Shown: piece after piece, positions 9,661-58,373 of the stretch | How positions within the stretch are numbered: position 1 is the stretch's first letter | How the letters are laid out: each line of letters begins with the position of its first letter | From: an uncultured bacterium | Lineage (GTDB): Bacteria; Patescibacteriota; JACMRA01 | NCBI GenBank assembly: GCA_963704645.1 | Contig: OY969926.1 | Coordinates: 1,024,001-1,088,000 of the forward strand | Length of the DNA: 64,000 nt | Direction of reading: 5' to 3' | Notes under the pieces: generated by a model | Databases searched by the model: none | What the model saw: only the letters and a program-made list of their open reading frames with translations | What the model was told of the DNA's origin: nothing | Made by a program: the position numbers and the translations under genes

Positions 9661-9689
9661 TTAGACACTGAAATAAATTCAGGGTGACA
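9661..9689 (-). repeat. TGTCACCCTGAA-type palindromic repeat (REP-like), copy 1
   Basis: Reverse complement TGTCACCCTGAATTTATTTCAGTGTCTAA; at least 7 copies in the window. Confidence 0.85.
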
Positions 9690-9717
9690 ATTTATCTAAT
9701 TTAGGACGAAAATGAAA

Positions 9718-12185: not shown

Positions 12186-12412
12186 AAAAGCTTATTTCCC
12201 TGAGTAAGTTAGGACAAGGTAAAGGTGTAATTAAATAATCATGATAAAACCAAAACCCCCAATAAAGGGAGCTAAGTTTGGTTAGAAGTATAGCACAATT
12301 AGAGTAAACCGTGGCTGAAAGTACCCCTGGTAAGTAAACTGGCGCAGGTTGAACTTGTTTCAACCGACATGTTTGCCCGAAGGGGTCAAGCCAAAGGCTT
12401 GGGGGTAGCGCC

Positions 12413-15011: not shown

Positions 15012-15044
15012 TTAGACCCTGAAACAAGTTCAAGGTGACAGGCT
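15012..15044 (-). repeat. TGTCACCCTGAA-type palindromic repeat, copy 2
   Basis: TTAGACCCTGAAACAAGTTCAAGGTGACAGGCT. Confidence 0.85.
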
Positions 15045-18436: not shown

Positions 18437-19093
18437 CTATTCTAGCCCTTCTAAAAACTCAATAATTTTTGGGGTAATTGGGTAGTAATTTTTGGCGGCG
18501 AAGATATCTAAAGCTTCTTCTGAGGGAAACTGGGAGTTGGTAATTTCAAGCCCATTGTGAATAAAAAACCAATCGTAAGAACCACCTACTTTGTTTATTA
18601 CTTCTTGGCTGGCTATTCCATAACTAATTTTTTCTTCTGTTTGAAAATTTCCATTTGGCAAAGCAATTGCAAGCCCTTGAATAATCTGGATTCGCCTATT
18701 TTCTTGTCCATCCAATTTAGCCAAAACTGACACAGCCCGATTATAATTCTCTTCTCTTTGTTCTTCCCACATTTGTTTTGTATGAATAACCTTTTCATCG
18801 CCAAACATTACTTCCTTGCTTAAAGTTCCAGGCCAATTTAAAGCTTCAAAAATAAAACCTCTGTCTTGGGAAATAGTTGGTAAATTGTATGCTGCTGCAT
18901 AAGCTTTAGCTTTTAATAAAGCATCCCCACCAAAAGTTCCACTGTCTTCAGCAATATGACCAAGTTCTATTTTTGGAAGATCTTTTAGGGTAACTAAATT
19001 AAATTTTTCAGCAAGTCCAGGTGCCTGCCAAGCCAGTTTAAATAATCTAATTTTACTGCCGTTGGTGGTTGCAAAAAGTATAGTTGGATTCAT
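18437..19093 (-). CDS. Ham1/ITPase-like non-canonical NTP pyrophosphatase (divergent)
   Basis: LFATTNGSK, EDSGTFGGDALLKAK, QDRG...ALNWPG. Confidence 0.8.
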   Translation of the reverse strand: MNPTILFATTNGSKIRLFKLAWQAPGLAEKFNLVTLKDLPKIELGHIAEDSGTFGGDALLKAKAYAAAYNLPTISQDRGFIFEALNWPGTLSKEVMFGDEKVIHTKQMWEEQREENYNRAVSVLAKLDGQENRRIQIIQGLAIALPNGNFQTEEKISYGIASQEVINKVGGSYDWFFIHNGLEITNSQFPSEEALDIFAAKNYYPITPKIIEFLEGLE

Positions 19094-19123
19094 ATTTATG
19101 TTGATTGATTGTTTCTAAATAAT

Positions 19124-19672
19124 TTAATTTTGATTATATTTAGCTAATTTTTGTTTATCTAAAACCATTTGGAAAGCACCTATTTCTAAACCATTCGGTT
19201 GAATATACGGTGAAAGTTTTTCTTTTGTTTTTTCAAAACCAAATTTAGTGTAAAAATTTATAGCCTGATTATTATATTCTACAACTTCTAGCTTCACATC
19301 TTGATTGTGCCTGTAAAGATTGTTTAATGTGTATTTTAACAAAATTGAACCAAAACCTTTAGAATGGTATTCTTGCAAAAGGTATATTTCGTCCAGCTCT
19401 ATCCAGTCTGGTTCATAGATAATTAAACTAAAACCTATTACTTTTTTATTAAATTCCAAAACCCAATATTGGTAATTGTTTCTGGATAATGTATCAACAA
19501 GCTTTAACTGTTTGCCTGCCCAATATTCTTCAGGAAAGCTAATTTCACCTATATCAGATGACGGATTTAAAACCACATTTGTATAATGTCTCCCATGTTT
19601 TAGTATTTCAACAATTGAACCAGCATCTTTTTGTATGGCTTTCCTGATAACTAAATTTTTATCTTCAATCAT
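19124..19672 (-). CDS. GNAT acetyltransferase
   Basis: IYLLQEYHSKGFGS and NNQAINFYTKFGF motifs. Confidence 0.9.
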   Translation of the reverse strand: MIEDKNLVIRKAIQKDAGSIVEILKHGRHYTNVVLNPSSDIGEISFPEEYWAGKQLKLVDTLSRNNYQYWVLEFNKKVIGFSLIIYEPDWIELDEIYLLQEYHSKGFGSILLKYTLNNLYRHNQDVKLEVVEYNNQAINFYTKFGFEKTKEKLSPYIQPNGLEIGAFQMVLDKQKLAKYNQN

Positions 19673-19716
19673 TTTTGTAGAATCAATTTCAAGTATATTT
19701 AATATTCCGAATATTT

Positions 19717-20208
19717 TTAAACTTCAACTGCTTTGGTATCAAACAAATAATCTACAATATGCCTTTTACCTTTAGTTGCTAATAAAGGCACAATATACAC
19801 CAAAACAAGAATTGCAACCGCAGGAGCTAAAACCAATTTGGCAATGGTTCTATAAGCCCATCTAGCCGAAGTTAACTCATCACCGTTTGTTCTAACAACT
19901 TTAAGTTTGCTAATTGCATAACCTTTCATTTGTTTATTTTTGGCTATTCTATATACAGGCCAAATTATACCAGTTGCTAACATACCAAATTGAACTGGAG
20001 CATATAGAATAACGTTGGAATTTAAAACCAATCTAAAATATATTGCTGCTAAACCATAAAATATTGCCATACCTGGAACGCAGGCCAAAGCAACTAAGCA
20101 TAGTTCTAAAAAGGTTGCCCCTACCCTAGGGTAATATAAACCATATTTTCTTTTTAAATATCCCTCTTTTTTTACAGGGCTGGAAGTTTGATTATTCTGT
20201 TCATTCAT
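19717..20208 (-). CDS. RDD-family membrane protein
   Basis: RVGATFLE, G...KLKVV, R...RHIVDYLFDT pattern. Confidence 0.75.
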   Translation of the reverse strand: MNEQNNQTSSPVKKEGYLKRKYGLYYPRVGATFLELCLVALACVPGMAIFYGLAAIYFRLVLNSNVILYAPVQFGMLATGIIWPVYRIAKNKQMKGYAISKLKVVRTNGDELTSARWAYRTIAKLVLAPAVAILVLVYIVPLLATKGKRHIVDYLFDTKAVEV

Positions 20209-20427
20209 ATAAATAAATTGTATTTTTAAAGTTATTAAACATCTTTAATTTGTCCACAAAAATTTATGTTCATAGTTTGGACTGTGTGCTTTGGAATGGG
20301 GAAAGGTGGTTGTTTGATGTTTGGGTAATTATGACTTTTTAAGTTTAGCGAAATTGGTTTTAAAATAAAACTAGGCAAAAATTAAAGCCGTTTTAGAACG
20401 GCATTTTGTTATAAATTTATTTGTGGG

Positions 20428-20730
20428 TCAAAAAAGTAATATAGCCCTAACAATCATGTCTCCAACAGTTTCGGAATCCTCAAATTCTAATGCTGCTTCA
20501 AGCAACTCCACCATTGTACTATAATCATTATTGTGTTTCAAATAACTAATTATTGAGGTTGCCAAGCTATCTGGTGTACTGTTCCAATTAACATGTCTTA
20601 CAAGAGTACAAGCATCATTTTTTCTTAATATATCAACGATTTTATGCAAACCATTGTATACATTTACCATGATCTTGGATTCAGCTAAAACCAATTTAGC
20701 AATAATTTCCTTTCTTTCCGTACTTTCCAC
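20428..20730 (-). CDS. Orphan hypothetical protein (cassette type)
   Basis: GTG after AAGGG; upstream TTGATA; hairpin GCCGTT...AACGGC downstream. Confidence 0.65.
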   Translation of the reverse strand: MESTERKEIIAKLVLAESKIMVNVYNGLHKIVDILRKNDACTLVRHVNWNSTPDSLATSIISYLKHNNDYSTMVELLEAALEFEDSETVGDMIVRAILLF

Positions 20731-20902
20731 AGTAAAATCCCTTAAACAGTAAATTAACTATTATAATCTTGCACATAAATTATGTTTTATCAAGAGTGTT
20801 AGAGGGATTTTAATTTTGGGGTGGAAATGGCTAATGGTGTTTTAATTAAATTTAAAAGTTGGTGTTCAAAGTATATGGTTTTAAATAAATTTTTTGAAAA
20901 TT

Positions 20903-20951
20903 AAAAAGCCACCCTACCTTAAACTTTTGAAGTTGTTTGGTAATTTGGGTG
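20903..20951 (-). terminator. Long structured terminator shared with 58324-58372
   Basis: CACCC..TACC..AACTT-loop-AAGTT..GGTA-GGGTG plus T-run; 48/49 identical to the 58324 copy. Confidence 0.85.
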
Positions 20952-20969
20952 ACTTATCTTAACAATAAA

Positions 20970-21380
20970 TTATTCCATAGGGGTAATAATTAAGTTTTCA
21001 ATTTCAACATTTGCAGCACAACCCCAGCTGGAAGCACCAGTTTCACCGAAGCTACTAACACTAATTTTTGCAGTTGTTTTACTGGTTAAAGTTATCAACC
21101 CAATTGTGTAGGCTTGCCCATCAACATCATCCAAGTAATGACCACTGTATAGTAAATCAAACCGAGCTTCACCATCGGAAGATATTCTACCATCGTTTGG
21201 TTCAGTGCTGGCTTGTCTAAACCAGTTTTGATAAAGCTTCAACTTGATGGTTTTACTTTTAAATTTTTTTACCTTACCTCTTGCATCAGAAACAAATACT
21301 GTAAGATTAGTTAAAACTAACTTTTTAGCTTCAAACTTTAAATCGAATTCTAAGCAACTTCTTTGAGGAACTGAAATCAT
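20970..21380 (-). CDS. Orphan beta-rich protein, probable remote paralog of 57903-58307
   Basis: 136 aa; AGGAGA upstream; both flanks shared with the 57903 cassette. Confidence 0.7.
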   Translation of the reverse strand: MISVPQRSCLEFDLKFEAKKLVLTNLTVFVSDARGKVKKFKSKTIKLKLYQNWFRQASTEPNDGRISSDGEARFDLLYSGHYLDDVDGQAYTIGLITLTSKTTAKISVSSFGETGASSWGCAANVEIENLIITPME

Positions 21381-21515
21381 TATTTTCTTATTCTCCTAGT
21401 AAATTTTTACCGAATTGGTATAATTAGTTGATAGCACAAAAAATGGGTTATATCAAGGGTGTTAGCCAGGGTTTGACTTTGGCGTGGGAATGGTGGAGGG
21501 TATTTATATATTAAT

Positions 21516-22579
21516 ATGCCCCAACTTGAAACTAGACTAATATCTACCATAAAAAACTTACTGGATCAGGCAAGAAAGCAAGTATTTCAAACTGTAAATA
21601 CAACTATGGTTAAAACCTATTTTGAAATAGGTAAAACTATTATAGAAGATGAACAAAATGGTGAAAATAGAGCCCAGTATGGAAAGGAAATTTTGAAGAA
21701 TTTAAGTGTGGAATTAACAAAAGAATATGGGAAAGGTTTTTCTGTAGATAATTTAGAAAATATGAGAAGGTTTTATCTTGCTTATGAAAAATCCGAAACA
21801 CTGTCTCGGAAATCTCAAAAAGATCAGATAGTGTCAGGCGAATTCTTAGAACCCGAAACGTCGTCTTCTAAATTTGCAGATTTCAAACTTTCATGGTCAC
21901 ACTATCTTATTTTAACCAGAATGGATAGTCTTGAAAGGGCTTTCTATGAAAAAGAAATTGGTTTAGGAAATTGGTCAGTTCGTGAATTTCAAAGACAAAT
22001 TGATTCGAGTTTATTTGAAAGAGTAACACTTAGTAGAAACAAAACAGCAGTATTGCAAGAAAGTCTGCAAAAATATCATCAGCCAGAAAGTTCAAAAGAC
22101 ATAATAAAAGACCCGATGGTTTCGAGTTTTTGGGGCTAGAAGAAAAAACTGAGTATTCGGAAAATGAACTTGAAACAGCAATAATTAGTAAAATTGAACA
22201 TTTTTTGCTAGAAATTGGAAAAGGTTTTGCCTTTGTAGGCAGACAGCAAAGATTTACTTTTGAAGAGGAGCATTTCTTTGTAGACTTGGTTTTTTATAAT
22301 CGGCTTTTGAAGTGCTTTGTTTTGGTAGATTTGAAAATTGGGAAGCTTAAACACCAAGATTTAGGGCAAATGCAAATGTATGTAAATTATTACAATAAGT
22401 TTGTAAAAACTGAAGACGAAAACCCAACGGTGGGAATTGTGCTTTGCAAAGATAAAAAAGACAGTATGGTAGAAATTACCTTGCCAGAAAACAGCCAAAT
22501 TTTTGCAAGCAAATATATGCTTTATCTACCAAACAAAGAAGAGCTGAAAAGGCAGATTGAGGATAGTAGTTGGCATTAA
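21516..22579 (+). pseudogene. YhcG/DUF1016 PD-(D/E)XK nuclease, split by a 1-nt deletion near 22120
   Basis: LSWSHY, WSVREF, KDP...EFLGL, FAFVGRQ, VDLVFYNRLLKC; adding one T in GTTTCGAG fuses the two ORFs. Confidence 0.85.
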
Positions 22580-22901
22580 TAAATTTTCACTTAGATTTTA
22601 GAAAATAGGTTTAACAAGAAAATCTTTTGAACAAAAATTAGCCGAAATCTAGGTTTTGACTTTGGGGTGGTTGTAATATGAATCTCATATAAACTCCTAT
22701 TATATCCTAGAAAATATGTGTTAAATTAAAACCATAGAATTGGCCGCCAAAAAACTTATGAATATGAATAAAATTGCAAGGGTTGGAGAAGGCAGGGAAG
22801 GCAGGCGTGGGGTTGAAAATGTGTAGGTGTAAATTGTATAATTACTTAGCAATTTGGGTTTGACTTTGGGGTGGAAATGGTGGAGGGTTTTTTAATTAAA
22901 T

Positions 22902-24758
22902 TTAATCTTGGACTTCGAAACAATTTATGAGACTTAAAAGAATAACAAAAACCGACCAAAACCGATATGTTAATTTGAAGCTTCCAGCACTAAAATATTT
23001 TAGATCATAGCCGTGTGCTAATATATTTCTATATCCGTCATTACTATTAAAAAGATAAGCATTGATAAACTGTATAAATCCTTTTATTTCTAAATCGCCA
23101 ACATAATTATCTGAAAAATCTTTAGCATTTTTTTCTATTTCATTAAGCATATTATCAGTTCCTACAAATTTTGTTTTATTATCTTGAATGTTAAAAAAAC
23201 TATTTTTGGTTGAAACACTAAAAAGTATTCTTATAAGAATTTCAATTTTGCTCATAAGACTTTCAGCAAATACAGAGTTTCTAAATATCAACTTATCAAT
23301 TTCGTTTTTGTTTAAGTTTCCTGCCTCTAAAAAAGAATCTTTCAGAGTATTGAACTCTTCAAATAACATTTTAGAAACTTCTGGTAAATTTATGTATCTC
23401 TCACCAAAATCTTTAAATTTCAAAATATTCTCCAACCTTGATGATATTAATTCATCGAATTCGTCTGGGTTAAGTTTTTGAATAATAAATTCGAATATTA
23501 AATCTAGCGTAAATGAATTATTTGTAAATAAATTCTCATTATAAAAATTATTACCCACATAACTAGTACCCTTATTATCTAAATTTAATTTAGTGAAAAG
23601 GTTTGTAAACGAATTGTGTTCAGACTCAATATTTGAATAATAATTTATTGATATGAAATATCTTGAAGCTATTGTTATTCTTACAAACAATGGGCTGGAT
23701 TTAATTTTTTCAAAGTACTCACGAAATGCTACTACAGTTTTAGTCATATCAACTGAAATAGGCTGCATGGTGCTTCTTGCTATTTTACTATTTTCTTCCT
23801 CCAATGAAACAATTTTTTTATTAAATTCATGTAAGTCTTGCTTAGAATAATTATTATTTTTATTTAACAATAACTTGGATTTACTAATAATCTGGCTGGC
23901 CAGTGCCCAATTAAAATCATCTCTCTTGAAATAGCCTTCCAAACGATTCAAAATAATTTCCATTAGGTCTCTATGCCAATTTAAAAATTCAGGTTTACTA
24001 GGTACATTAGATATCAAATCTAGTAATCTTGAAAAAGATTGATCTTCCAAATATAACTTTGAAGCTAGGTTGCATATTTTTGAATATACCAATTCTAGTT
24101 CGATTGTTTCAATCCATTTATATTTTTTTATTAAAAATTCTGATATTATCAGACTGAAAAGATTGACAGATTCAAATGGTGTTTTATATAATTCAAAAAT
24201 TAAATTCTTTGTCGAATTATAATCAATTTTATTTTTAACTACATCTTCAAGGAAATAATCCAAAATAATCCAAAACTTTTTTAAATTGGGAGCATTACCT
24301 ACCATTAATTCACTCCAGAATACATTATATTTTTCTAAAATATTTTCTTTAAAGTCTTTATATTCCTTCCCCAATCCTTCTTTTCCACTTTTTTTTCCAT
24401 GATTTTTAATTATATAAATTTCATTTAACAAGTTTAAATACTCAATTTGAAAAGCAATTGGCAAGTTATATACTTGGCTTAAGTTTTCATTTAAAAAAGT
24501 ATATGTATCTTCAAAACTTAAAAAGTTATCTGCATTGTTGTTTTGAGTTTCAAAATAAGTTCTTAAACCACCATTCCAATATCCACTAATATTAATTAAT
24601 TTAAGAAATATTTCCACATCTTTTCTATTATTTTCTTCTTGCAGTTGTACTTTATCTAAATGAAAAATTGCCATTCTAAAATCATTGTCTACAGGATCAT
24701 ATTCATTTCCATAGTTTTTCAGTATAAATTCTATAAATTTTTTATCTTTTAAAAACAT
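22902..24758 (-). CDS. Large protein with C-terminal HEPN-like (DUF4209-like) motif, possible defence RNase
   Basis: YRNILAHG (R-x4-H) near the C-terminus preceded by IEILIR; very AT-rich. Confidence 0.6.
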   Translation of the reverse strand: MFLKDKKFIEFILKNYGNEYDPVDNDFRMAIFHLDKVQLQEENNRKDVEIFLKLINISGYWNGGLRTYFETQNNNADNFLSFEDTYTFLNENLSQVYNLPIAFQIEYLNLLNEIYIIKNHGKKSGKEGLGKEYKDFKENILEKYNVFWSELMVGNAPNLKKFWIILDYFLEDVVKNKIDYNSTKNLIFELYKTPFESVNLFSLIISEFLIKKYKWIETIELELVYSKICNLASKLYLEDQSFSRLLDLISNVPSKPEFLNWHRDLMEIILNRLEGYFKRDDFNWALASQIISKSKLLLNKNNNYSKQDLHEFNKKIVSLEEENSKIARSTMQPISVDMTKTVVAFREYFEKIKSSPLFVRITIASRYFISINYYSNIESEHNSFTNLFTKLNLDNKGTSYVGNNFYNENLFTNNSFTLDLIFEFIIQKLNPDEFDELISSRLENILKFKDFGERYINLPEVSKMLFEEFNTLKDSFLEAGNLNKNEIDKLIFRNSVFAESLMSKIEILIRILFSVSTKNSFFNIQDNKTKFVGTDNMLNEIEKNAKDFSDNYVGDLEIKGFIQFINAYLFNSNDGYRNILAHGYDLKYFSAGSFKLTYRFWSVFVILLSLINCFEVQD

Positions 24759-24760
24759 AA

Positions 24761-25111
24761 TTATTTTGCTTGGTTTTTTATTATTTCACTAAATATTTCA
24801 TTAGGTGGATTTTTTCCAACAATGGGAAATAGGTTTGCAACAATTACATCACCTCGTATAATGGTTTTTGTGACATTTACAGGACCTGTACCGTTATGTA
24901 CAACATTACCCTTACCGATATTATTTTGCTCAGTTTTTGAATTAAAAATGATTAATGAGTCTATTTTGTTAACAATATTACTTTCACTTGCCTTAATACT
25001 TTTTTTATTTAAATACCAAGTAAAAAATATTGAAATAAGATTAAGCATGCCAACTATAAAGACAGGAACTGTAGCAATAACAAGTGGTTGATTTAAAAAA
25101 TTTGTTATCAT
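24761..25111 (-). CDS. Single-TM hypothetical protein coupled to the HEPN-like gene
   Basis: 116 aa; stop lies 2 nt before the next ATG. Confidence 0.6.
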   Translation of the reverse strand: MITNFLNQPLVIATVPVFIVGMLNLISIFFTWYLNKKSIKASESNIVNKIDSLIIFNSKTEQNNIGKGNVVHNGTGPVNVTKTIIRGDVIVANLFPIVGKNPPNEIFSEIIKNQAK

Positions 25112-25223
25112 CTCTTTTATATAAATACTTTATAGACTAGTAGTATTTTAGACCAATATTTTGTCAAAGATAATTTTAGCAATCATAACGGGTTTTGTTC
25201 TATATGTCTTAATCCTTTTTCAA

Positions 25224-25541
25224 TTAAACTAAATCTAATAAATTGATGATTTCTTCTAAACTATTCTGATCTAATTCTTTAATAGATAAAATTGATTCCA
25301 GCGATTCAAATATCCAAGCAAATTTTAGAGGATTGTTTGTTTCCATAAATTTAACAATTGATACTTTATCAACTGTATTAATTCCAAGAGTGGTTTTAAT
25401 TTTCTCTATAAAATCAATATAGTTTTCTACTTTATCAGGCCAATCATTTATAGCTTGATCAATGTTTTTTCTTATTTTTTCAATTTCAGTTTGAGTTAAT
25501 TTTGTAAGCATATTTATAGACTTATAAATTCCATTTATCAA
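25224..25541 (-). CDS. Small hypothetical protein, possible orphan immunity protein
   Basis: Position in the array downstream of the toxin. Confidence 0.5.
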   Translation of the reverse strand: MINGIYKSINMLTKLTQTEIEKIRKNIDQAINDWPDKVENYIDFIEKIKTTLGINTVDKVSIVKFMETNNPLKFAWIFESLESILSIKELDQNSLEEIINLLDLV

Positions 25542-25548
25542 TAAACTA

Positions 25549-25824
25549 TTATAAATCTTTAAACATTTCTTTACTCAAAAAAACAATTTCGTACTTAAAT
25601 TCTTCTTTATTTTTGTAGTTATTTAATATTTTCAATAGCTCAGACTTACTCTCCTCAACTAATTTATTCCACACTTTAACTCTTATGATTAATGTTGAAA
25701 GATCAATTATATCAATATTTTCTACTCTTCCATCAGTAATGGAAAATATATCTACACCTAATATAGGTTCACTGGATTGTTTTATTGAATTGTATAATTC
25801 TTGGTAATTTAATCTCCATTCCAA
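25549..25824 (-). CDS. Imm40-like immunity protein, possibly 5'-truncated
   Basis: W...PILGVD resembles the Imm40 W...ILGGD pattern; in-frame TGA just upstream. Confidence 0.4.
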   Translation of the reverse strand: MEWRLNYQELYNSIKQSSEPILGVDIFSITDGRVENIDIIDLSTLIIRVKVWNKLVEESKSELLKILNNYKNKEEFKYEIVFLSKEMFKDL

Positions 25825-25851
25825 AAAATTATTTATTCATGCATTTTTAAG

Positions 25852-26199
25852 CTAATTTATATAACTTATTTTATTAATTATAATACTTTCACTATTTGTA
25901 AATGAAATAACAATCTCATCCTCAGCAAATGACCTTATTGTTAAGAAATTATCAGAGATATCTAAACTTGAAATTGTAAAATGAAATCTTGGATCTGTTT
26001 CTTTATTAAAACTATTTTTAAAAGATTCAATCTTATACGGGGCTTTAATAATTATTTCGTAATCTATGTTTTCATCCCAGTAGAATAATATTCCTATTTT
26101 GATTTCAGATAAAAAATGCTCTGTATTCAATTTTTCTATCCTACTCTCAGTAAAGTTTATTTTAGATAGTTCTTCTTTTTTTATTGTGGTTATGTTCAT
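25852..26199 (-). CDS. Small hypothetical protein, possible immunity protein
   Basis: 4-nt overlap with the CPCC gene; toxin-downstream position. Confidence 0.55.
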   Translation of the reverse strand: MNITTIKKEELSKINFTESRIEKLNTEHFLSEIKIGILFYWDENIDYEIIIKAPYKIESFKNSFNKETDPRFHFTISSLDISDNFLTIRSFAEDEIVISFTNSESIIINKISYIN

Positions 26200-26483
26200 T
26201 TTATTGCATTATAAACATTATTATCAATATCAATTTTCTCGAGGTTTTTTATTTGTTCATTAGCTTTCCAAATAGCTGGTATTCTTTCTTTCTTTTTAAA
26301 AATCATACCATTATTTATCCAAGCTTTTCTAAGTGAAATAATTTTTTGCATGTCAGAATTTAATAAATGGTATCCAAATTCTGTACCGCAGCAAGGACAT
26401 ATTTCAAAAGATCCACATGAAAATTTATCAAAGGGTGGTTCAAATAATTTATCAAAACCGCAAATTGGGCAAATGTAATTCAT
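26196..26483 (-). CDS. CPCC-type cysteine-rich protein, putative cognate immunity protein
   Basis: YICPICGF...FEICPCCGTEFGY...RKAW; starts 2 nt after the toxin stop. Confidence 0.8.
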   Translation of the reverse strand: MNYICPICGFDKLFEPPFDKFSCGSFEICPCCGTEFGYHLLNSDMQKIISLRKAWINNGMIFKKKERIPAIWKANEQIKNLEKIDIDNNVYNAIK

Positions 26484-26485
26484 AG

Positions 26486-29400
26486 TTATTGTTTGTTGTA
26501 GTAATCTAAGTTAGTTGGCTCTCCATGAATTGCAGGATTTGGCTTATAGTATGTTCTTATTATTCCACTACTAGTCACCACACCAAATTCATTAGTTGAT
26601 GGATTAAACTTTACTATGTCGCCATTAATTCTAGTTTTCGAAAGTATGCTTGAATTGTCACTATTCATAAACGATTTTGCCAAAGCTTGGTATTGGGATG
26701 AGGATTTTGCACCAAAGTCTGCACCATGATCATTGTAGTGAGATTCTAGTGTGTTTTCATTAGCAAATCCCGTTGCACAATCTACATCCGCCCTAACCGA
26801 CACAACCCCAAACACAAATCCAAGAATAAGATCAGCAGCCGAAGCCTTCCCCAACAAACAACCACCCTTAGGTTCCTCAGAGTTTTTAGGTTTTGTTTTA
26901 GTGTCGTCAACCCCGTTCTTAACATTATCCAAATCATCCATTGCTTTGTTAAGTGCATTGGCCGCATCGTCCATGTTTGGCAAGGTTGGGTTTTTGTTTA
27001 AGTTGTCTGTGGCTTTACTTAAGTCATCTACAATTTTAGAAATGTCGTCTGTTACTTTGGCTAGGTCGTCTACTGTGCCAGCTACTTTAGAAACATCATC
27101 TAATACAGAACTAGATTTAGATATGGACGATGCTCCTTTAGATATTGCCCCTACACCAGCTGCTAAGGCTTCCCCTGTAAGAACTTGTCCTGCAAAGTAG
27201 CCTATACAAGTGGCAGGGTTTGGATCTGTTGTTCCACAAAAGTTTTGAGCTAGGTTTTGGTTAAACTTATCAGGGTCAAAGCTTAGTGATGGTGGGTTAA
27301 AGGAAATATTAGTTGCACTAACTGCAGCCGAAACCGTGTTAATTGTGGCTCCAATTATTGCTCCTGTAATAATAGTTGTGGCTATTGCTCCTGCTGTTCC
27401 ACCAATACCTACAACAGCAAGGCCTGCCCCTACTGCACCTGCTACAAAAGGTGCTGCTACAATGGTTAGAGCTACTACACCTACTACTAGGGCAATTTTA
27501 CCAATTCCACTTAAATAGTCTCCGTTTTTAAAGTCATCTATTATACCTGTGGTAAAGTCTGCTATACCTGTTACCACGCTTGCAGCTCCGTTAATTACAC
27601 CTTTAGTAAAACAATTGTCTCCGCTGAATATGTTAAAGTCGTTGTTGTATTTATTCTTTTCTGCTTCGGCGGTTGCTTTTGCTTGTTGGGCTTCTATCTC
27701 GGCTTTTTGTTTTTCATAGTCAGCTACGGCTTGTTTGTAATTATCTATACTATCTTGGTATGCTGTTTTAATATTAGCTATTTCGTCATTGGTTAAAAGA
27801 GAAGTATCGCAAGTTTTGTTGGCTGGAGTTGGACCTACAAAATTAGTTTCTTTTCTTAGTCTGTTAAGTTCGTTTGCTTGAACACAACTACTAGCTTCAC
27901 TTTTAGCTTTGGCCTGTGTTTGAAGTTCATCATTAACTTGAGATTGAATTAAGTTTGGTTCGTATACATTACAAGATTTACTAAAGCCTAAGTCTGGCAA
28001 TGGGGAATTTGGATCTGTAAGGTTTTTAACATAATCTTTTATGGTAGATTTTTGAGAATCACTTAAATTACACTCCCCGCTTCTTGGTGGACGAACAGGG
28101 GTGGTAATAGATTTACAAGTATTACCAGAAGTATTTGTTGCCCTGTCTGCTAAATTAGAACAGAAGGTGAAGGTGTTTTCCCAGTCGGAATCGTTATGAA
28201 CACTAAGGGTTTTTACTGTGGAAGTTTTGTTTCCCTGCTTTCCAATATTTCCAACCAAATTAGAAGTTGTGTAACTTTCCCCCGATACATTTCCAGAAAT
28301 TGTGTATGGCTCTTGTTTGTAAACAAAGTTTAAAGAGAGGTTTAGATTTGGATTATTTGGAGTTAAGGTGTCTCTTTCAATTTGGAAACATTTTAAACCA
28401 ATTTCATTGTCTGCAGAATCTGCAGAGTTGTAACATATTTGGTATATTCCGTCTTCCGCAAGGCCTGCCGCTCCGTCTTTGTCTGCAGTTTTGCTGCCTA
28501 AAGTAAAAGATACAGTATGCTTTTGGTTAGTGGCATTAATGAAAGTTTTAGATTGGTTAGAAACCAAATTTCCTACATTATCTAACAAGAAATATTCCAC
28601 ATCTGCTTGTTGCTCGGTAATACCTTCCAAAGTTAAATCTAGTTGATTTGTAACTACTGGAAGATTACCTCGGCCATCGGCGTAAAACTTTGGTGCTCCG
28701 TCGGTTTGGAAGTCTATTAAAGGATTAAATTTATTGGAGAGAGCGTTCTGAATAGAAAAGAATTGAGGAACAGTTTTGTCGTATTCCAACAAATATTGGC
28801 GAGTGTGTTCGCTTCTGTTGCCAGATTTATCTTCGTTACGCCACTGGACCAAATAGACACCTTCAGCTTTAGAGCTTGCCCCTGGCTTAGTACCTTGGGT
28901 AGAAGTATTCAAGGTTCCTGCTTTTAACAAAGTTTGATAAAGTTCTTCAAATTTAACTTGAATAGCAAACAAACAATGGGTTTTATTTTGAACTACAGTT
29001 CCGTCTGCGGCTATAGTTTCTTGGTTTTCTACCAAATTTCCATTAACCTTAGATTGTTCGGAACACCCGTTATTAACAACTTCAACAGCTACAATGTCGG
29101 TGTTATTTATACTTAGAATTGGATGAGTATCTTTTTCGGCAAACCCATAGAAAAATACAGAATCATCTTTTAAAACATAGTTTTTCTGGTTGTCTATTTG
29201 AAGAAGTCTATTGTTAGCAGGTCTAAAATATGAAGGTTCAATGTAGGCAGGTTGAGCAAAAATTCTTCTTTCAAAACCAGTTAAATTTCCCCATAAAGAA
29301 AAGTCTTGGGTTGGGGCATTAGGACCAACATTGTCTATAATATAGTCTTTGGTAGTTTGGGTAATATTTCCAGCAAGGTCGGCAATTTCAACTTCAACTT

Positions 29401-32400
29401 GGTAATTCCCTTGGGCTGCGTAACCTTCTATTTGGAACAAACCACCAGCTGCAAAATATGGAGTGTAATTTGAAGGGCGGCTTCCAGAGTTTGCCACAGG
29501 ACTTAATTCATACCTAAACTTTTCGTTTTGATTAGTAATCTTTCCATACTCTAACACTTCGTCAGCTTCCAATTCAACCTCTACTGTATCGCCGCTTTGC
29601 CTGTTAAAACCGTTTGGCATTCCAGCTCCGTTATTACAGTAAACTCCGTTTGGGGTAGCTCCTAAAATAATGGAAGGGCTGGCTGGTAAATTGGTAATTG
29701 TTAAATTATCTTTGGTACACAAATGTTTGTTTACAGCATCGCTGTTATTATTGTTTAAATTTCTATAAGCTACCAAACTTGGGGCAATTGTGTCTACAAC
29801 AAGTGCAGTATTTTCTAAACTTTCTACAGTTTTTACTCCTTTAGTTGCCACTACTTTTAGACTGTAATTAGTGTTGGTATTAGAGGTTGAGGTACTTAAT
29901 GTACAAGAAAAAATGCTAATTTCTGAAGTAACAGTTTGGCAGACTGTGTTTCCAGATATAATATCAATAATTGCGATGTTGGTGGAAGGATCGGCGAACC
30001 CTTTAATTTCGTTGGCTAAAGAATTAGAGTAATATTTTCCATTATACAACCTCGTGTTTTCAGAGGTGGAGGGAGCAACAATTTTGTTAATATCGTAAAT
30101 AGTTGGAGTAGTTAAAATGTTAGCATCAAGCCAAACTCCAGCCGACAAAGTTTGTTCTATACTTCCTTTTCTTCCTGTAAAATTAACTTCATAAAGTCCT
30201 CCGTTAAAACTTGGCACAGGGTAAACAACATCCCAAGTACATTCGGTTGATGAGCAAGGTGTTGTAAGCGGGTCACCAGCGGAGTTGTAAGTTACATCAC
30301 CTAAAATATTCTTGGTGTAATCAAAAGGTGAATTATCTATCCATCCAATTTTTTGTTTAACTTCATTCCCAGAAAGCTCGCTTAAATTAGTTAAATTAGA
30401 ATAGCTAAGTTTAACGTATTGGGTATCGGCCGTAACAGTTGAGCGTAATATTAGCTTTTTAGCAGAATTAATTTCAGTTTCAAGTTGAGTCTTAATATTG
30501 TCTTTTTCGGTTTGGGAAGAAGCGGCCAGCCACTGGTTTTGTAAATCTTCAATTTTAGCAATTTGAGCTACACTATTTATTCCAGAAAAAGTAGGAATTG
30601 ATTGAACCGAGATGAATGGATCTACAGGATTATTTCTTACAAAAACTTGATTAGAAGGAAGCCCTTCGTTTCCAAATTTATCTACAATTGTAGCCTGAAT
30701 TATATGATTAGTTATGCCTGGGTTTGCAGGGTCTGAGGTAATTTTTGGTAAAGCAACTATAACCGAGAAATAGCCATCAGCGCTAACCGAAGCCATCTGT
30801 TCAAAATCGCAACTTCCATTTAAACCAAGTGTATCAACACAAATTCTAACACTTACATCTTCAGGGTTTAAACCTGCAAATAAATTAGCCTGACCTTGCA
30901 CTTCGGTAACGCCAGAAGAAGTTATGAACGGTGTATTGCTAGAAGCCCCAGACGGATAAGTAATGAAAACTCCTGGTGTGTTTTTGGTAATATTTTGGAA
31001 AGCCCCAGAAATGTTAGGTAGGTTAGAATTATCTACAGAATTTAAATCTAAATTCCATGTATAGTTTCCATCTTCTAACCAATTTCCAGAGTCATCTTTT
31101 CCATCAAAAATTAAACTTGGTGGAAGCGAGTTGGAACCACTAATTGTTTTTACAACATCTCCATTGGAATTTTTTAAAGTCCAGCTCCAAGTATCAACTA
31201 GAATAGGATCGGCGGCATTATTTGGGTTTGAAATTGCCCCTTCAAAATAAATTCCATCTTGCTTGCCGTTGCCATCTGTAGAAATAAAAGTGGTTCCGTA
31301 TTGTTTGCCAGCATTATTGGAAGCAGCAAAACTTAGATTCACCGAAAATAAATTAACTTTAATAGTTTTAGTTAAGCTTTGGGTATTTCCAGCCAAATCG
31401 GCGATTGTAATTATATTATCATTAAGAATTTCTGGATTAGGGTTTGCAGCATCGTTACTTGAAGACTGTGGTAAATCTACACTGTAGCTACAAATTGGAT
31501 TTGTTGTTAAAGCCGAATTATCAAAATCTTGATCTTCGTTACAGGTTATAGTGAACGGACCTTGAACATAGCTTGCAGGAGTAATGTTACCAAGATTGAC
31601 GGACGGATTTGAACCAACAATTTGGCCTAAACTTCCATTACTAGTTTCATCTAAAACAATTTGTGTGGAGTATGTTTCGACTCCTAAATTAGCTAACGGC
31701 GCAGCAGACTTTAACTGAGAATTTTCTAATTTTAAAGTTGCCCCCTTCTCGCCTTTACCTTCAAAACGGACTATCTTTCTGGCGTAAACCGAGTTAGCTG
31801 ACGGACTAGAATTTTCTACAAAAGTGAAAGAATCTAAATTCAATTTTGCTTTGTCATAACTAAACAAATTTCCAGCTTTATCCTTCCCCGAAAGTACAAA
31901 TGTATACTGGCCATCAGGTTGAATTTCATTGGCAAAATTGTAACCGACGTCACAGGATGTTTGACCAGTAACAAAGTCTCCAGCTGGCACAATTTGGTCT
32001 ATGCAAGTTGAGTTTAAAGAACCTAAGATACTAGAATTTGCTCCGTTTAAAACTAAACTAATTTCACCATTTGTTGAATCTACTAATTTTAAATTTAGAC
32101 TGTTTCCATCAATTCCCGATACTCCATTGTTTTGAGTATTTGGGTCTTGCAGCGAGAATTCCACAACTGGTTTTCGGTTATTAGAAAGTACTGTTTGCCC
32201 ATTAATATCCATGTTTTGAGAGTTCAATGAAACTGAAGTAACACTTGGAATTTCCTCTTCTCTGGTAATTTTTAATTGCTTTTCTTGTTGGTTAGAAACG
32301 GAATCTGTGGAACGGAATTTAAACAAATTTTCGCCTAAACTAAGGCCGTAATTTTTTTGGAAAAAGTAATCTTGGTTTACTACATTGTTGAACGGCAAAT

Positions 32401-35975: not shown

Positions 35976-36010
35976 GAGCCAGTCACCCTGAACTCGTTTC
36001 AGGGTCTAAG
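35976..36010 (+). repeat. TGTCACCCTGAA-type palindromic repeat, copy 3
   Basis: GAGCCAGTCACCCTGAACTCGTTTCAGGGTCTAAG. Confidence 0.85.
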
Positions 36011-36060
36011 TGCTAAAACCAACAAAAGCCTAAGACTCAAGACGAAACAGCCTCAAAACC

Positions 36061-36895: not shown

Positions 36896-36931
36896 GAGCC
36901 TGTCACCCCTGAATTTATTTCAGGGTCTAAG
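36896..36931 (+). repeat. TGTCACCCTGAA-type palindromic repeat, copy 4
   Basis: GAGCCTGTCACCCCTGAATTTATTTCAGGGTCTAAG. Confidence 0.85.
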
Positions 36932-37027
36932 TATAATAATACACTAACACTATAACTTGCCAGCCACCAAGAAACATGCTTATATGGTTAAGTAAACGGG
37001 TTAAAGCATTTTAGAGGAAAAGAGTTT

Positions 37028-44051: not shown

Positions 44052-44086
44052 GAGCCCTGTCACCCTGAACTTGTTTCAGGGCCTAA
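44052..44086 (+). repeat. TGTCACCCTGAA-type palindromic repeat, copy 5
   Basis: GAGCCCTGTCACCCTGAACTTGTTTCAGGGCCTAA. Confidence 0.88.
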
Positions 44087-44211
44087 TTGGAGAAATACAA
44101 CCAGTGATTCATTTCTCCACATATTAATAATTCGACACATCTTCATGTCATAATGTAGAGACGAGCTCTTGTCCTACAATATACTTTGCTAAAACGACAA
44201 AGGGTTCGCCC

Positions 44212-48682: not shown

Positions 48683-50125
48683 ATGAAACTATACTTTTCT
48701 GGAATTGGTGGTGTTGGGCTTGCACCACTGGCTATGATAGCTAAAGACTGTGGTTTTGAAGTTTTTGGTTCAGATAGAAGCCCTAGTTTGTCTTCAGCTG
48801 AACTAGAAAAGAGAGGAATTGAAATAACTTACGAACAAAGTTTAGAGGAAATACAAGCCGCTTATACCAAACATAACTTTGATTGGTTAGTGGTTACAGC
48901 TGCCCTTCCCCAAAGCCACCCACATATACAGTTTGCCAAAGAAAACAATATTAAAATTTCCAAGCGGGATGAACTGTTAAATGTTATTCTAGCCGAGAAA
49001 AAACTAAAATTAATTGCAGTAGCAGGAACCCATGGTAAAACTACAACTACAGCTATGGTTACTTGGTTGTTTCAACAAAACAATATTCCGGTAAGCTATT
49101 TAATTGGGTCTAATATTTCATTTGGGCCAGCAGGTAAATATGAAGAAGACAGCCGATATTTTGTTTTAGAATGTGACGAATTCGATAAAAACTTTTTACA
49201 TTTTCGCCCAGAAATTAGTGTAATTACCAGCCTAGATTATGATCATCCAGACACTTACCCAACTAAGGAAGAATATCTTGAATGTTTTAATAAATTCTTG
49301 GGTCAAACTAAGGAGGGAATTTGTATTTGGGAAGAAGATTCCAACAAACTAAATTTAGCGGAGGTTAGTGCAAAAGTTTATAGTTTTAATTCCAAGGTTG
49401 TGCCTTACTCGAATTACTTACAGTTGATAAACTTGGCGGGAGAACATAACCGTCGAAATGGATTTTTATCTATTGTGGCCACGCTTTCTGCACTACCAAA
49501 AATTAATGATTCAAACGAGCTGTTGAATCAGCCAAAAATTTCCTTAGAAAAACTTAACGAAAGTCTTTCCAGCTTCCCAGGAACTATTCGTAGATTTGAA
49601 AAAATTAACCATGGTTTGTATTCAGATTACGCCCACCACCCTGTAGAAATTTCAGCTACAATTCAGTTAGCCAAGGAAGTTCAAGCAAAAGGCAAGTTTA
49701 ACCAACTGGTAATTGTGTATCAGCCTCATCAAAATTTACGCCAACACGAAGACTCAATTCAACTAGGCTACAAAGATTGCTTTCACCAAACAGACAAACT
49801 TTACTGGCTACCAACCTATTTAAGCAGAGAGCCTGAAGGAACAGAAATATTACAACCAGCAAGCATAGCCCAAAATTTAGAAGGGTTTAGGTTGGATCCT
49901 TTGAACAATAATAATAATACAAAATTCATAGCCAACAATTACAACGGAGATACTGACAAAATATCAATTAGTAAACCCGAAAGTAATCTCAAATATTTAA
50001 CCGGACAATTTGTACAACTAGATGCAAATTTAAAAAAAATAATTCAAACAGAATTAGATAACAACAATTTGGTTGTGTGTTTTGGGGCTGGTAATATTGA
50101 TGACTTTGTTAGGAGTAGTTTTTAG
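48683..50125 (+). CDS. murC: UDP-N-acetylmuramate--L-alanine ligase
   Basis: GIGGVGL, VAGTHGKTTT, ECDEFD, DHPD, GEHN, RRFE, DYAHHP, YQPH, GAGNI. Confidence 0.92.
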   Translation: MKLYFSGIGGVGLAPLAMIAKDCGFEVFGSDRSPSLSSAELEKRGIEITYEQSLEEIQAAYTKHNFDWLVVTAALPQSHPHIQFAKENNIKISKRDELLNVILAEKKLKLIAVAGTHGKTTTTAMVTWLFQQNNIPVSYLIGSNISFGPAGKYEEDSRYFVLECDEFDKNFLHFRPEISVITSLDYDHPDTYPTKEEYLECFNKFLGQTKEGICIWEEDSNKLNLAEVSAKVYSFNSKVVPYSNYLQLINLAGEHNRRNGFLSIVATLSALPKINDSNELLNQPKISLEKLNESLSSFPGTIRRFEKINHGLYSDYAHHPVEISATIQLAKEVQAKGKFNQLVIVYQPHQNLRQHEDSIQLGYKDCFHQTDKLYWLPTYLSREPEGTEILQPASIAQNLEGFRLDPLNNNNNTKFIANNYNGDTDKISISKPESNLKYLTGQFVQLDANLKKIIQTELDNNNLVVCFGAGNIDDFVRSSF

Positions 50126-50202
50126 GAAGTAGTGCTGGGAATAAGTAGTGTTGTAAAATAATCTTAGGCTCAAAAGCTTAGGCCCTGAAACAAGTTCAGG
50201 GT

Positions 50203-51282
50203 TGTATATGTCAACTTATTCAGTGACAGAATTAAGTTTCTCATAGGGAGTAATATTACCAATACCTTGATGTCTTCTAATATGGTTGAAGTAGCAACAA
50301 TATTCAAATAATTCTTCTTCTAAACTTTCTTTATCTGGGTATACTTGCTCTCTAAGTAATTCTTCCTCTAAACTTCTCCAGAATCTTTCTACTTTACCAT
50401 TGGTTTGTGGCCTGTAGGCTCTAGTGTACTTATGCTTAATGTTGTATTCTAACAGTAATCTTTCAAATGGATGGTTTTGTTTGTTTTCTTCTTTTGTTTC
50501 TTTCCTTCCAAATTCGGGTCCATTGTCTGTTAATATACTTTGAAAATCTATGTTGTAACATCTATTGAATACTGCTAATAATCTTTGAGTATAAAGCATA
50601 ACTGTTAGAGCTTGTAGATTAGGTATTAGTATGGTCATAACTATTCTAGTAAAGTCATCTGTTAAGCTTAGTAGAAAGTATTCATTCTTTTCACCCTCCA
50701 GTATTCCTTTAGCTAGTCTGTGGCAATCCATATGGCCTAATTCTCCTGCTTTATCTTTAATGATTCTTCTTTTGTTAGTTTGAATTACTCTTGGATCTAA
50801 TCTATTCAATCCTTTCTTTAATAGTATATTGTAAATAGTCGTAGGTGAAGGAGTATATTTACCATACTTAGGTAAAAGGAAATCGTGTATCTCATATCTA
50901 CCAAATCCTTGGTTTCTAAGTTCAATAATCTTATTCTGTATGAAAGGAATACTTTTTAAACTACCAAACTTTCTCCCTCTTTTCTTTGGAATTAAACTAC
51001 TATCCATAGAAACTAATTTATACCTATTGTAATATTTGATGAAGTTTTGTCTAGTTATATTATTTGCTTTGTAGAATTCATTTACAAATACATATCTAGG
51101 ATGTTTCCTTGTTTTAATTAATTCATATTCTTGAACTAATTGTTTCATATGTCTAAGGTAATTCTTGGTTAAAGTATTATCGTTTAAACGCATATTATGT
51201 TAGAATATATGTTGTTAAAAATTTAACAGAAATAATCTAAAAGAAGATTTAAATTCTGTCACTGAAATTTATGACATATACA
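50203..51282 (-). mobile_element. IS481-family insertion sequence, 1080 bp, 31-bp IRs, 5-bp TSD AGGGT, inserted in REP copy 6
   Basis: Ends TGTATATGTC-N6-TTCAGTGACAGAATT (26/31 match); AGGGT at 50198-50202 and 51283-51287. Confidence 0.93.
50216..51193 (-). CDS. IS481-family DDE transposase
   Basis: GELGHMD, DDFTR, LTDNGPEF, YRPQTNGKVERF, RRHQGI...TP. Confidence 0.95.
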   Translation of the reverse strand: MRLNDNTLTKNYLRHMKQLVQEYELIKTRKHPRYVFVNEFYKANNITRQNFIKYYNRYKLVSMDSSLIPKKRGRKFGSLKSIPFIQNKIIELRNQGFGRYEIHDFLLPKYGKYTPSPTTIYNILLKKGLNRLDPRVIQTNKRRIIKDKAGELGHMDCHRLAKGILEGEKNEYFLLSLTDDFTRIVMTILIPNLQALTVMLYTQRLLAVFNRCYNIDFQSILTDNGPEFGRKETKEENKQNHPFERLLLEYNIKHKYTRAYRPQTNGKVERFWRSLEEELLREQVYPDKESLEEELFEYCCYFNHIRRHQGIGNITPYEKLNSVTE

Positions 51283-51324
51283 AGGGTGACAGTTTAAACA
51301 ATTACCTTAGCTCAATTTTTATCT

Positions 51325-52314: not shown

Positions 52315-52444
52315 TGAACTTAAACAATAAGTAAATTGTTTTTGGAATTTATACAAGCTTATTTTGAAGTGCAATACCAATGCAAGCACATAAATACTTG
52401 TATTATTTTATTCTATCGCTGAACCTTTACAAAACAAAAATTGC

Positions 52445-57635: not shown

Positions 57636-57730
57636 GCTAAATCATAGGAAAATATCTCGAGTCTCGATGTTAAGTTTTTTTTCAAACATATAGTCATCAT
57701 AGATTTTAACAAAATCACTCCTAAATTCTC

Positions 57731-57765
57731 GAGCCTGTCACCCTGAATTTATTTCAGGGTATAAG
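57731..57765 (+). repeat. TGTCACCCTGAA-type palindromic repeat, copy 7
   Basis: GAGCCTGTCACCCTGAATTTATTTCAGGGTATAAG. Confidence 0.85.
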
Positions 57766-57828: not shown

Positions 57829-57889
57829 CCTTGCACACCATAGTTTTTTGTGCTACCAACAATATATACCAATTCGGTACAAATTTACT
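57829..57889 (+). promoter_or_regulatory. Promoter/leader shared with the reverse complement of about 21398-21458
   Basis: CCTTG...TTTTTTGTGCTAYCAAC....TATACCAATTCGGTAMAAATTTACT; 41/46 identity in the core. Confidence 0.8.
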
Positions 57890-57902
57890 TTGAGATAAAA
57901 AA

Positions 57903-58307
57903 ATGGATTTACTCAGTATTCCTGACAATACAACTATCAAAGTTGAAGCTAAAATACCGTCCCACACTATTGTGGCAATTAAAACGGACCATTCTGCCCA
58001 AACCTGCGAGATTGATGTTGAAGAACTACCAATTTCTATAGTGCTGATCAATAACCCATATTCTGGTGGAGAGAACGACAAAGTTCAGCGCTCTGGATTA
58101 CTAGAAATTTTTGACATTAGAAGATTCGATATAACATTGGTGCACAATGTCAATTTTATACAGGAAGTTCTAAGTGTCCCGGAGGTGCAAATTATCACTT
58201 CTAATCTTATCGTTTTTAGTGGAATTTTCTGGATGTATGCAGATCCAAGTAATGCGTGGGTATTTCAAATTGAAGTACCAGCAACTATTACAATTGATAA
58301 TTTATAA
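57903..58307 (+). CDS. Orphan beta-rich protein, probable remote paralog of 20970-21380
   Basis: 134 aa; shared flanks; scattered colinear motif similarity. Confidence 0.7.
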   Translation: MDLLSIPDNTTIKVEAKIPSHTIVAIKTDHSAQTCEIDVEELPISIVLINNPYSGGENDKVQRSGLLEIFDIRRFDITLVHNVNFIQEVLSVPEVQIITSNLIVFSGIFWMYADPSNAWVFQIEVPATITIDNL

Positions 58308-58323
58308 TAAAACTTATAACAAC

Positions 58324-58373
58324 CACCCAAATTACCAAACAACTTCATAAGTTTAAGGTAGGGTGGCTTTTTT
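58324..58373 (+). terminator. Long structured terminator shared with 20903-20951
   Basis: CACCCAAATTACCAAACAACTTCATAAGTTTAAGGTAGGGTGGCTTTTT. Confidence 0.85.

Follow-up and report, generated by a model that had tools for sequence, protein, structure and literature searches.

Two genes in this stretch of DNA, here called A and B, lie between almost identical untranslated ends and encode small proteins that are not detectably related to each other. They are interpreted, with moderate confidence, as two single-gene units that carry different orphan cargo and came to share their regulatory ends recently, through recombination. The observation holds up and is somewhat unusual, but it is small in scale and comes from one genome. 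The window, meaning the whole 64,000-nt stretch that was analysed, corresponds to positions 1,024,001-1,088,000 of one 1,272,640-nt contig with 33% G+C; the relatives listed across the phylum have genomes of ~0.7-1.6 Mb. It mixes ordinary bacterial genes (RRF, Mur ligases, an M50 protease, a sigma-70-like protein) with many orphans and one surface-type protein of 2,671 aa, and no tRNA genes were found in it. The source is presumably a bacterium with a small genome, of the Patescibacteria/CPR kind. A single DNA sequencing run (share 0.07) gave one 219-nt contig, which covers 57700-57806 and falls outside cassette B.

A and B are 37 kb apart on opposite strands. The original prediction had described a 46-nt block on the 5' side of each ORF and a 49-nt block on the 3' side, and blastn-short confirmed both the positions and the identities of these blocks (41/46, 89.1%, and 48/49, 98.0%); the one mismatch in the 3' block does lie in the loop of the hairpin, as had been said. 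On ungapped extension in a repeat search the 5' block reached 60 nt at 83% identity and the 3' block 60 nt at 93%. In a MAFFT alignment of both units, windows of 30 columns had identities of 0.77-0.83 where they fell in the 5' block, rose to 0.93-0.97 over the 3' block and stayed within 0.23-0.50 along the CDS. The CDS identity is thus at background and not like that of the flanks, and the description of conserved flanks around a decayed coding sequence is borne out. The similarity specific to A and B runs from about the -10 to past the T-run of the terminator, which amounts to the untranslated parts of the transcript; upstream of the -10 the two loci have just a generic promoter core in common. 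The ribosome-binding region and the 16-18 nt from the stop codon to the hairpin are poorly conserved between them.

The blocks were then sought elsewhere. Within the contig nhmmer placed the 5' block at these two loci (E 3e-17 and 6e-17; next best 6.1) and the 3' block at the same two (E 1e-19 and 3e-19; next best 0.12). Each end is present in exactly two copies, always as a pair, with order, orientation and spacing kept (gaps of 431 and 420 nt between the 5' and 3' blocks at the two loci). This supports the view that the ends are linked to one another and are not generic repeats strewn independently over many loci. A BLAST search of the genome against itself gave 19 candidate pairs of short matches bracketing an unmatched gap, eight of which were inspected; A/B alone had both matches in intergenic DNA that was not a dispersed intergenic repeat, and the other inspected pairs were dispersed repeats, such as a REP-like hairpin, or patches in coding paralogues. 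Neither end and neither whole cassette was found in 25 family genomes (the same-genus genome G001 and 24 others). The exact pattern of the 3' hairpin had no match in viral, metagenome and genome collections, nor had that of the leader in the viral collection. One weak match of the leader, in genome G008 (E 1e-4), was located within an ORF of 449 aa and was taken as chance.

At the 5' end of A, which is read on the minus strand, the putative -35 TTGATA (21451..21456) stands 17 nt upstream of the -10 and has TTG alone in common with its counterpart in B. Next come a T-run, TGTGC (extended -10 type) and the -10 TATCAA (together 21428..21443), and then the putative 5'UTR (21381..21427), whose start was placed from the position of the -10. 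The first 25 nt of the leader (21398-21422), within which lies the inverted repeat TACC-AATTC-GGTA (21408-21420), match B at 24/25 positions; the ribosome-binding site AGGAG is at 21393-21397. In B, on the plus strand, the corresponding features are a putative -35 TTGCAC (57831..57836), again 17 nt upstream of the -10, a T-run, TGTGC and -10 TACCAA (57844..57859), and a putative 5'UTR (57860..57902) with the 25 nt in common with A at 57865-57889, the inverted repeat at 57867-57879 and a weak ribosome-binding site, GAGA, at ~57892-57895. The similarity of the two leaders decays toward the ribosome-binding site. The promoters and transcription-start positions of A and B are predictions from these motifs; a simple sigma-70 scan did not call the A promoter.

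The block had been presented as a shared promoter and leader. Its 41/46 identity stands, but the first ~17 nt are generic and are also found at other genes and in relatives. The sequence TTTNTGTGCTA was counted nine times in the genome, against 5.5 expected, and at five of these nine sites, A and B included, TTG is present at the -35 distance (TTGNNN-N17). Seven weak DNA matches to the 5' block were obtained in relatives: five of them consist of a TTGACA-like element, ~11 nt, a T-run, TGTGC and TAYNNN, one lies within a 449-aa ORF and one aligns with another part of the block. Judged by these motifs, the first ~17 nt (T-run, TGTGC and TAYCAA) are the generic promoter core of the lineage. We take this core to resemble an extended -10 of the TRTGn type, with TTGATA or TTGCAC as the -35, TATCAA or TACCAA as the -10 and a spacing of 17 nt. 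Of the TACC-AATTC-GGTA mini-hairpin that had been claimed, the inverted repeat is present, but as RNA it folds no more stably than shuffled sequence (z -0.3), and it could equally be a DNA operator.

At the 3' end each ORF is followed by a nested hairpin and a T-run resembling an intrinsic terminator, at 20903..20951 on the minus strand in A (48/49 identical to B) and at 58324..58373 on the plus strand in B. The A hairpin was predicted to fold with -17.7 kcal/mol (z -3.9, 0/200 shuffles as good) and the B hairpin with -14.8 kcal/mol (z -2.6, 1/200 shuffles as good), and both are followed by GGC and five or six T. The combination of a stable hairpin with a U-run is that of an intrinsic (Rho-independent) terminator, which is the predicted function of the element. 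A simple terminator scan missed the hairpin, presumably because its stem is interrupted by internal loops. The near-perfect identity between A and B extends to the loop and the unpaired positions, and recent common ancestry fits this better than functional constraint alone. Pairing between the 5' and 3' ends of the mRNA, as in hok-type mRNAs, was no better than in shuffles. Rfam gave nothing at its gathering threshold, and at E <= 1 there were sub-threshold eukaryotic families only.

ORF A (20970..21380, minus strand) encodes P0001, an orphan of 136 aa, and ORF B (57903..58307, plus strand) encodes P0002, of 134 aa, which has a single known homologue. Both ORFs were shown to be genes: the chance of a 135-codon open frame at this base composition is ~3e-5, and the codon score of each is positive in the annotated frame and negative in both other frames. 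In codon usage A is typical of the genome (73rd percentile among 608 long genes), whereas B is atypical (0.5th percentile; GC3 0.304 vs 0.247 +/- 0.034).

The two proteins are not detectably related, and remote common descent is only hinted at by weak colinear traces. BLASTP of P0001 against P0002 gave E 4.6, local and semi-global alignments scored z about 1 against shuffles, and the nucleotide alignment of the two CDS gave z 1.3. The profile comparison that had been called for, made with hhalign between P0001 and an alignment of P0002 with its homologue P0004, returned a probability of 0.2% and detected no relationship. Most of the colinear similarities that had been pointed out (ISVP/LSIP and others) are accordingly not above chance. 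What survives of the colinearity is a strict global alignment with z 2.8 (21/3000 shuffles as good) and one colinear match of 16/17 nt near codon 15, within the first 75 nt of both CDS (codons ~13-19). An equal score was found against A in one other of 1022 genes and against B in 0/1022. The middle and the last 66 nt of the two CDS are at background similarity, and the VEAK codons that A and B have in common are not kept in P0004.

P0004, a 133-aa protein from another metagenome, is 57-58% identical to P0002 (E 1.4e-42), was the sole match to it among 1.84 billion representatives searched with HMMER, and shows an ordinary pattern of conservation. It is encoded on three JGI/IMG contigs, of which the longest measures 3,817 nt. 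Searches with its peptide patterns in metagenome, genome and viral contigs led to no confirmed locus. For P0001 no homologue was found in a word-indexed set of 5.8 billion, and the same query found nothing among 40 relatives, 26 members of the class and 400 members of the phylum. P0002 was likewise not found in the 40 relatives, a profile of P0002 and P0004 had no match in the 26 class genomes, and among the 2,955 ORFs of the contig there was no paralogue of either protein. Pfam, PHROGs and PADLOC gave no credible family for P0001 or P0002; a PADLOC match to Cas12c (E 0.006, 12.6 bits over 50 residues) was treated as noise. Neither protein had a tblastn match in a phage collection, and cassette B had no blastn match in a plasmid collection.

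Structural comparisons led to no fold assignment for P0001 or P0002. Against PDB sequences P0002 had no match; residues 49-126 of P0001 matched three antibody heavy-chain variable domains (E 0.057, 0.13 and 0.46), which were not credited. The ESM Atlas held no usable match for P0001, and the best for P0002 were phage hypothetical proteins at 0.79-0.80, inside the noise range. AlphaFold gave a pLDDT of 32 for P0001 alone and of 52.8 for P0002 with a two-row alignment; these low-confidence models are mostly beta, with four beta strands at matching N-terminal positions. Foldseek returned nothing from the PDB at E <= 0.001 (TM <= 0.25), and the best hits of a wider fold search, generic beta barrels with Z 4.2, are below the stated noise level. 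No signal peptide or membrane segment was evident by eye in either protein. The sole hint to the role of the proteins is their context, both genes being in parts of the genome that are not shared with G001.

Locus B is a rearrangement junction relative to G001. There, the ORF next upstream of the orthologue of the gene downstream of B (58530-59240) is a different one, of 252 aa, beyond which comes the orthologue of 48683-50125; the helicase-nuclease that precedes B in the window is ~10 kb away on the other strand. Locus A is within a stretch of the window (19095-31999) that has no DNA match in G001, and searches of five relatives did not find its neighbours, which are an orphan of 618 aa and an RDD protein. 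Directly downstream of A is P0003 (20428..20730, minus strand), a 100-aa orphan with a different terminator of its own (20387-20402) and no counterpart in the family genomes (0/25). Between the A terminator and P0003 lies R2 (20806..20855, minus strand), a repeat that is C-rich on the minus strand, with other copies at 21469-21505 and 22856-22905 and a partial one near 22660-22680; P0003 has upstream of it an R2 copy that has diverged, together with a promoter belonging to the class of those of A and B. R2 is confined to locus A in three to four copies, three other 17-mer matches falling within coding repeats, and it punctuates a series composed of the 618-aa orphan, a split YhcG-type nuclease on the other strand, A and P0003. 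This punctuated array recalls, by analogy, the hyperplastic regions of T4-type phages.

The comparison with G001 also gives a measure of divergence in the genus. Orthologues in the genome under study (G000) and G001 have 55-84% protein identity and 75-81% DNA identity, and orthologous intergenic DNA aligns no better than shuffled sequence under the semi-global scoring used, which is permissive. A short GC-rich dispersed element is 100% identical between the two genomes and occurs at several G001 loci, which indicates that short non-coding elements can stay identical over genus-level divergence in this lineage.

The explanation favoured here is that A and B each form a self-contained transcription unit of one gene, with different orphan cargo in the two. 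Each would consist of a promoter of the class common in the lineage (-35 TTGNNN, a T-rich 17-nt spacer ending in TGTGC, -10 TAYCAA), a ~45-nt leader with its first 25 nt near-identical, a ribosome-binding site, a ~135-codon ORF for a small protein predicted to be mostly beta, and a nested-hairpin intrinsic terminator. The ancestry that the untranslated ends have in common would be far more recent than that of the coding parts, homologous recombination or gene conversion having moved or homogenised the ends or swapped cargo between them; the process would be one of modular shuffling, not of accelerated mutation of the CDS. We infer the recombination mechanism, its direction and the function of the terminator. 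The divergence of P0002 and P0004 is comparable to that of G000/G001 orthologues, between which intergenic DNA has decayed, so that the B type of sequence is probably older than the shared ends. Given that age, the A and B ends (89-98% identical) are either younger than the difference in cargo or under unusually strong constraint. The atypical codon usage of B beside the typical usage of A is expected if the B cargo came from elsewhere, and the position of both loci in flexible parts of the genome was counted in favour of recombination. The poor conservation of the ribosome-binding region and of the gap between stop codon and hairpin would place breakpoints just outside the ORF on both sides, a tidiness that suggests functional selection. 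It also counts against this explanation that the simple scans called neither the promoter nor the terminator. There are two copies and no close relative, so no exchange event has been observed.

The main rival account, possible although we consider it rather doubtful, is that A and B are old co-regulated paralogues whose proteins have diverged beyond recognition, the leader and terminator having been kept by selection or by gene conversion confined to the ends. Such selection could come, for example, from a repressor that binds the TACC-N5-GGTA repeat where transcription starts and from a protein that recognises the 3' hairpin. The near-equal sizes (136 and 134 aa), the global z of 2.8 and the 17-nt match near the start of both CDS may hint that the cargo consists of very old paralogues instead of unrelated genes, and the four beta strands at matching positions, the coincidence of the conserved blocks with functional mRNA units and the existence of another short element kept identical across the genus point the same way. 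Against this, hhalign finds no relationship even with P0004 in the profile, the 48/49 identity takes in bulges and the flanks of the loop, positions at which changes in a terminator are tolerated, and neither block was found in G001 or the 24 further family genomes. The loss of the shared VEAK codons in P0004 also makes the 17-nt match look recent, not constrained. With two copies in one genome, the data do not separate this account from recombination around different cargo.

The remaining alternatives are much less probable. The original prediction had taken the pair for an expression cassette, and this is supported in that the cis ends are near-identical, linked to each other and not generic while the cargo is dissimilar; it had further called the cassette mobile or amplifying. 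A site-specific or transposable cassette (integron-like, MITE-like or mobilised by an insertion sequence), with the ends as recombination sites, would account for a hairpin-forming element after the ORF, as attC follows the ORF in integron cassettes, and for the location of both loci in flexible regions. An integrase had been stated to be missing from the window; this is wrong, as an rve-type integrase ORF lies at 50216-51193, 6.6 kb from B. That ORF has its own inverted repeats, which are unrelated to the cassette ends, no recombinase is beside either locus, and the only tyrosine recombinase (PF00589) ORF of the contig (883,678-884,421) is ~160 kb from A and 197 kb from B. The cassettes have no terminal inverted or direct repeats in common, are present as two dispersed copies in opposite orientation with no array, and were not found in the 25 family genomes; each has its own promoter, and the T-run after the hairpin is that of a terminator. 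Mobility or amplification is thus not supported, and a dedicated mobile cassette is improbable. A recent duplication followed by targeted hypermutation of the cargo, through a diversity-generating retroelement or another mutator, matches the bare pattern of conserved ends around a CDS that is not conserved, and is more improbable still. The claim that no reverse transcriptase is present in the window holds and extends to the whole contig, in which PF00078 had no match; the same search was positive in 3/14 control genomes, and the genome is estimated to be 87% complete, so that hypermutation by a retroelement would need a reverse transcriptase in the missing part. No second copy of any segment of either CDS, such as a template repeat, was found in the contig, the divergence affects the whole CDS with indels and is not a C-terminal patch, and P0004 shows the B type evolving in an ordinary, alignable fashion. 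The extreme diversification of cargo that had been proposed is therefore disfavoured. Coincidence of generic intergenic repeats, or of promoter and terminator consensus sequences, draws on the generic promoter core in the first ~17 nt of the 5' block and on the other dispersed hairpin repeats of the genome, and is scarcely credible: outside that core, the other ~45 nt of leader and the 49-nt hairpin occur nowhere else in the contig than at the two loci (E 1e-17 to 1e-19), where their order, orientation and spacing are the same, and for these A/B-specific parts coincidence is refuted.

If the ends are an exchange module, as recombination around different cargo would imply, they would offer a very small genome with few mobile elements a way to turn over and express orphan genes, and the leader and hairpin would give a handle with which to fish more cargo from metagenomes. 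Should function be what keeps the ends alike, A and B would instead be the two members of a regulon marked by specific RNA or DNA signals at the 5' and 3' ends, in a lineage whose gene regulation is almost unknown. More speculatively, and in our judgement unlikely, the pair may be a cellular counterpart of the shuffling of regulatory cassettes in phages, the leader and terminator together being a portable, recombination-competent 'socket'. The two ends would stay nearly the same at different loci and allow orphan genes to be swapped or newly recruited with no dedicated recombinase; were this true, it would provide a route to express and test new genes in reduced genomes. The promoter class (T-run, TGTGC and TAYNNN, 17 nt after TTGNNN) should, as a by-product, be useful to annotate these genomes.

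Several known systems place variable sequence beside conserved sequence. Diversity-generating retroelements resemble A and B in local hyper-divergence next to a conserved part, but for A and B neither a reverse transcriptase nor a pair of template and variable repeats was found in the contig, and the whole gene is diverged. A MITE or other small non-autonomous transposon would be bounded by terminal inverted repeats and a target-site duplication; no end-to-end inverted or direct repeat is common to the two cassettes. In integron cassettes an ORF is followed by a conserved imperfect hairpin, attC, and unrelated cargo lies between similar ends. A and B share with them the ORF followed by an imperfect hairpin and the dissimilar cargo; they differ in having no nearby integrase and no array, in having their own promoter and in the nature of the 3' element, a hairpin of ~45 nt with a T-run, in which the R''/R' core sites were not recognisable by eye. 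The bab genes of Helicobacter and the pil loci of Neisseria are dispersed paralogues with conserved ends and divergent middles that undergo gene conversion. The likeness is that copies stand at separate loci with ends alike and middles different, so that exchange is possible; there, however, the ends lie within the CDS and the middles can be aligned, whereas the ends of A and B are untranslated and their proteins cannot be aligned.

Phage morons are single genes with their own promoter and terminator that are inserted between other genes, and A and B are similarly insulated single-gene units, each with an orphan gene at a non-conserved position. Unlike morons, they have no prophage context that could be seen around either locus with Pfam or PHROGs, and identical shared ends are not a defining feature of morons. 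In the PeSL (promoter-early stem-loop) cassettes of T4-type phages, as outlined by Arbiol et al. 2010 (PMC2839356) and Comeau et al. 2014 (PMC4122927), small orphan genes that are unrelated to one another lie between short conserved sequences, a promoter and a stem-loop terminator; PeSLs are situated in plastic regions and were proposed in these reports to be points of homologous exchange. Measured against these outlines, A and B are alike in having promoter-like and terminator-like ends around different orphan cargo, and at the junction of A with P0003 alone (20740-20951) a terminator-like hairpin, an R2 repeat and a promoter-like core adjoin, in the manner of a composite PeSL. They differ from the cassettes so described in lying in a cellular genome and not a phage, and in having two copies of each block in 1.27 Mb instead of dozens, only R2 being locally multiplied (three to four copies). 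The promoter and terminator of A and B are, in addition, distinct blocks at opposite ends of the gene, not one composite motif present in copies on either side of it, and no exchange event or mini-circle has been observed for them. By analogy with what these reports outline, A and B would thus appear to work like PeSL cassettes although they are not members of that class.

A putative promoter layout is found at both cassettes, at window positions 21428-21456 for cassette A and 57831-57859 for cassette B. It consists of a TTGACA-like -35 element, a T-rich 17-nt spacer with TGTGC at its end, and then TAYNNN. The same layout was present at five of the nine TTTNTGTGCTA sites in the genome studied here, those beyond the two cassettes being at contig positions 595495, 602695 and 940153, and at five loci from four other genera (L035, L036, L037, L043 and L044). 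This putative promoter class seems to be widespread in the family.

Around cassette A, copies of a repeat, R2, were located at 20806-20855, 21469-21505 and 22856-22905, with a partial copy near 22660-22680, and R2 is restricted to this locus. Its minus strand is C-rich and G-poor, its plus strand is rich in G-runs, and, following the neighbouring 618-aa orphan gene, it runs on into some 130 nt of C-rich sequence. R2 may be a Rho-utilisation-like tract or a recombination joint. A YhcG/DUF1016 PD-(D/E)XK nuclease, transcribed divergently from cassette A and with an R2 copy on each side, is encoded on the plus strand in two overlapping ORFs, 21516-22139 (N-terminal domain, 207 aa) and 22130-22579 (nuclease domain, 149 aa). 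Both halves strongly matched the PADLOC candidate defence family PDC-S02 (E 1e-60 and 2e-72), and the split is a frameshift or a pseudogene.

Two further non-coding elements are dispersed. The GC-rich element at 12380-12410 recurs at about 11 further sites, giving 12 copies on the contig at up to 4 mismatches, and had no match in Rfam. G001, a relative of the same genus, carries 28-30 nt of this element at 100% identity in at least five places, whereas orthologous genes share just 75-81% DNA identity. The other is a REP-like hairpin, GTCACCCTGAA...TTCAGGGT, seen at 9661-9706, 15012-15044, 35979-36020, 36900-36941, 44056-44097, 50178-50202 and 57734-57775 and in dozens more copies across the contig. 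It is intergenic, frequently directly 3' of genes, and one copy lies immediately upstream of cassette B.

A 325-aa rve-family integrase ORF (50216-51193, minus strand) adjoins a GIY-YIG protein (51325-52389) and lies at the other edge of a segment rearranged relative to G001. As 32-nt inverted repeats bound it on both sides (50202-50233 and 51252-51283), it is probably an insertion sequence. The Ham1-family gene (18437-19093, minus strand) shares 91% protein and 88% DNA identity with that of G001, compared with 55-84% for other orthologues, and its gene context differs in G001; it may be a recent transfer. Outside the window, at contig 1,265,140-1,271,412, ORF copies repeat in tandem with a 1,218-nt period as far as the contig end, and the assembly may stop in this repeat.

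Upstream of cassette B is a UvrD_C + PD-(D/E)XK protein (55356-57635, plus strand), in which Pfam recognised no N-terminal helicase domain. Although PADLOC gave weak GajB/Cas4 matches, its conservation in all five relatives tested makes a role in defence less likely than an AddB-like housekeeping one.
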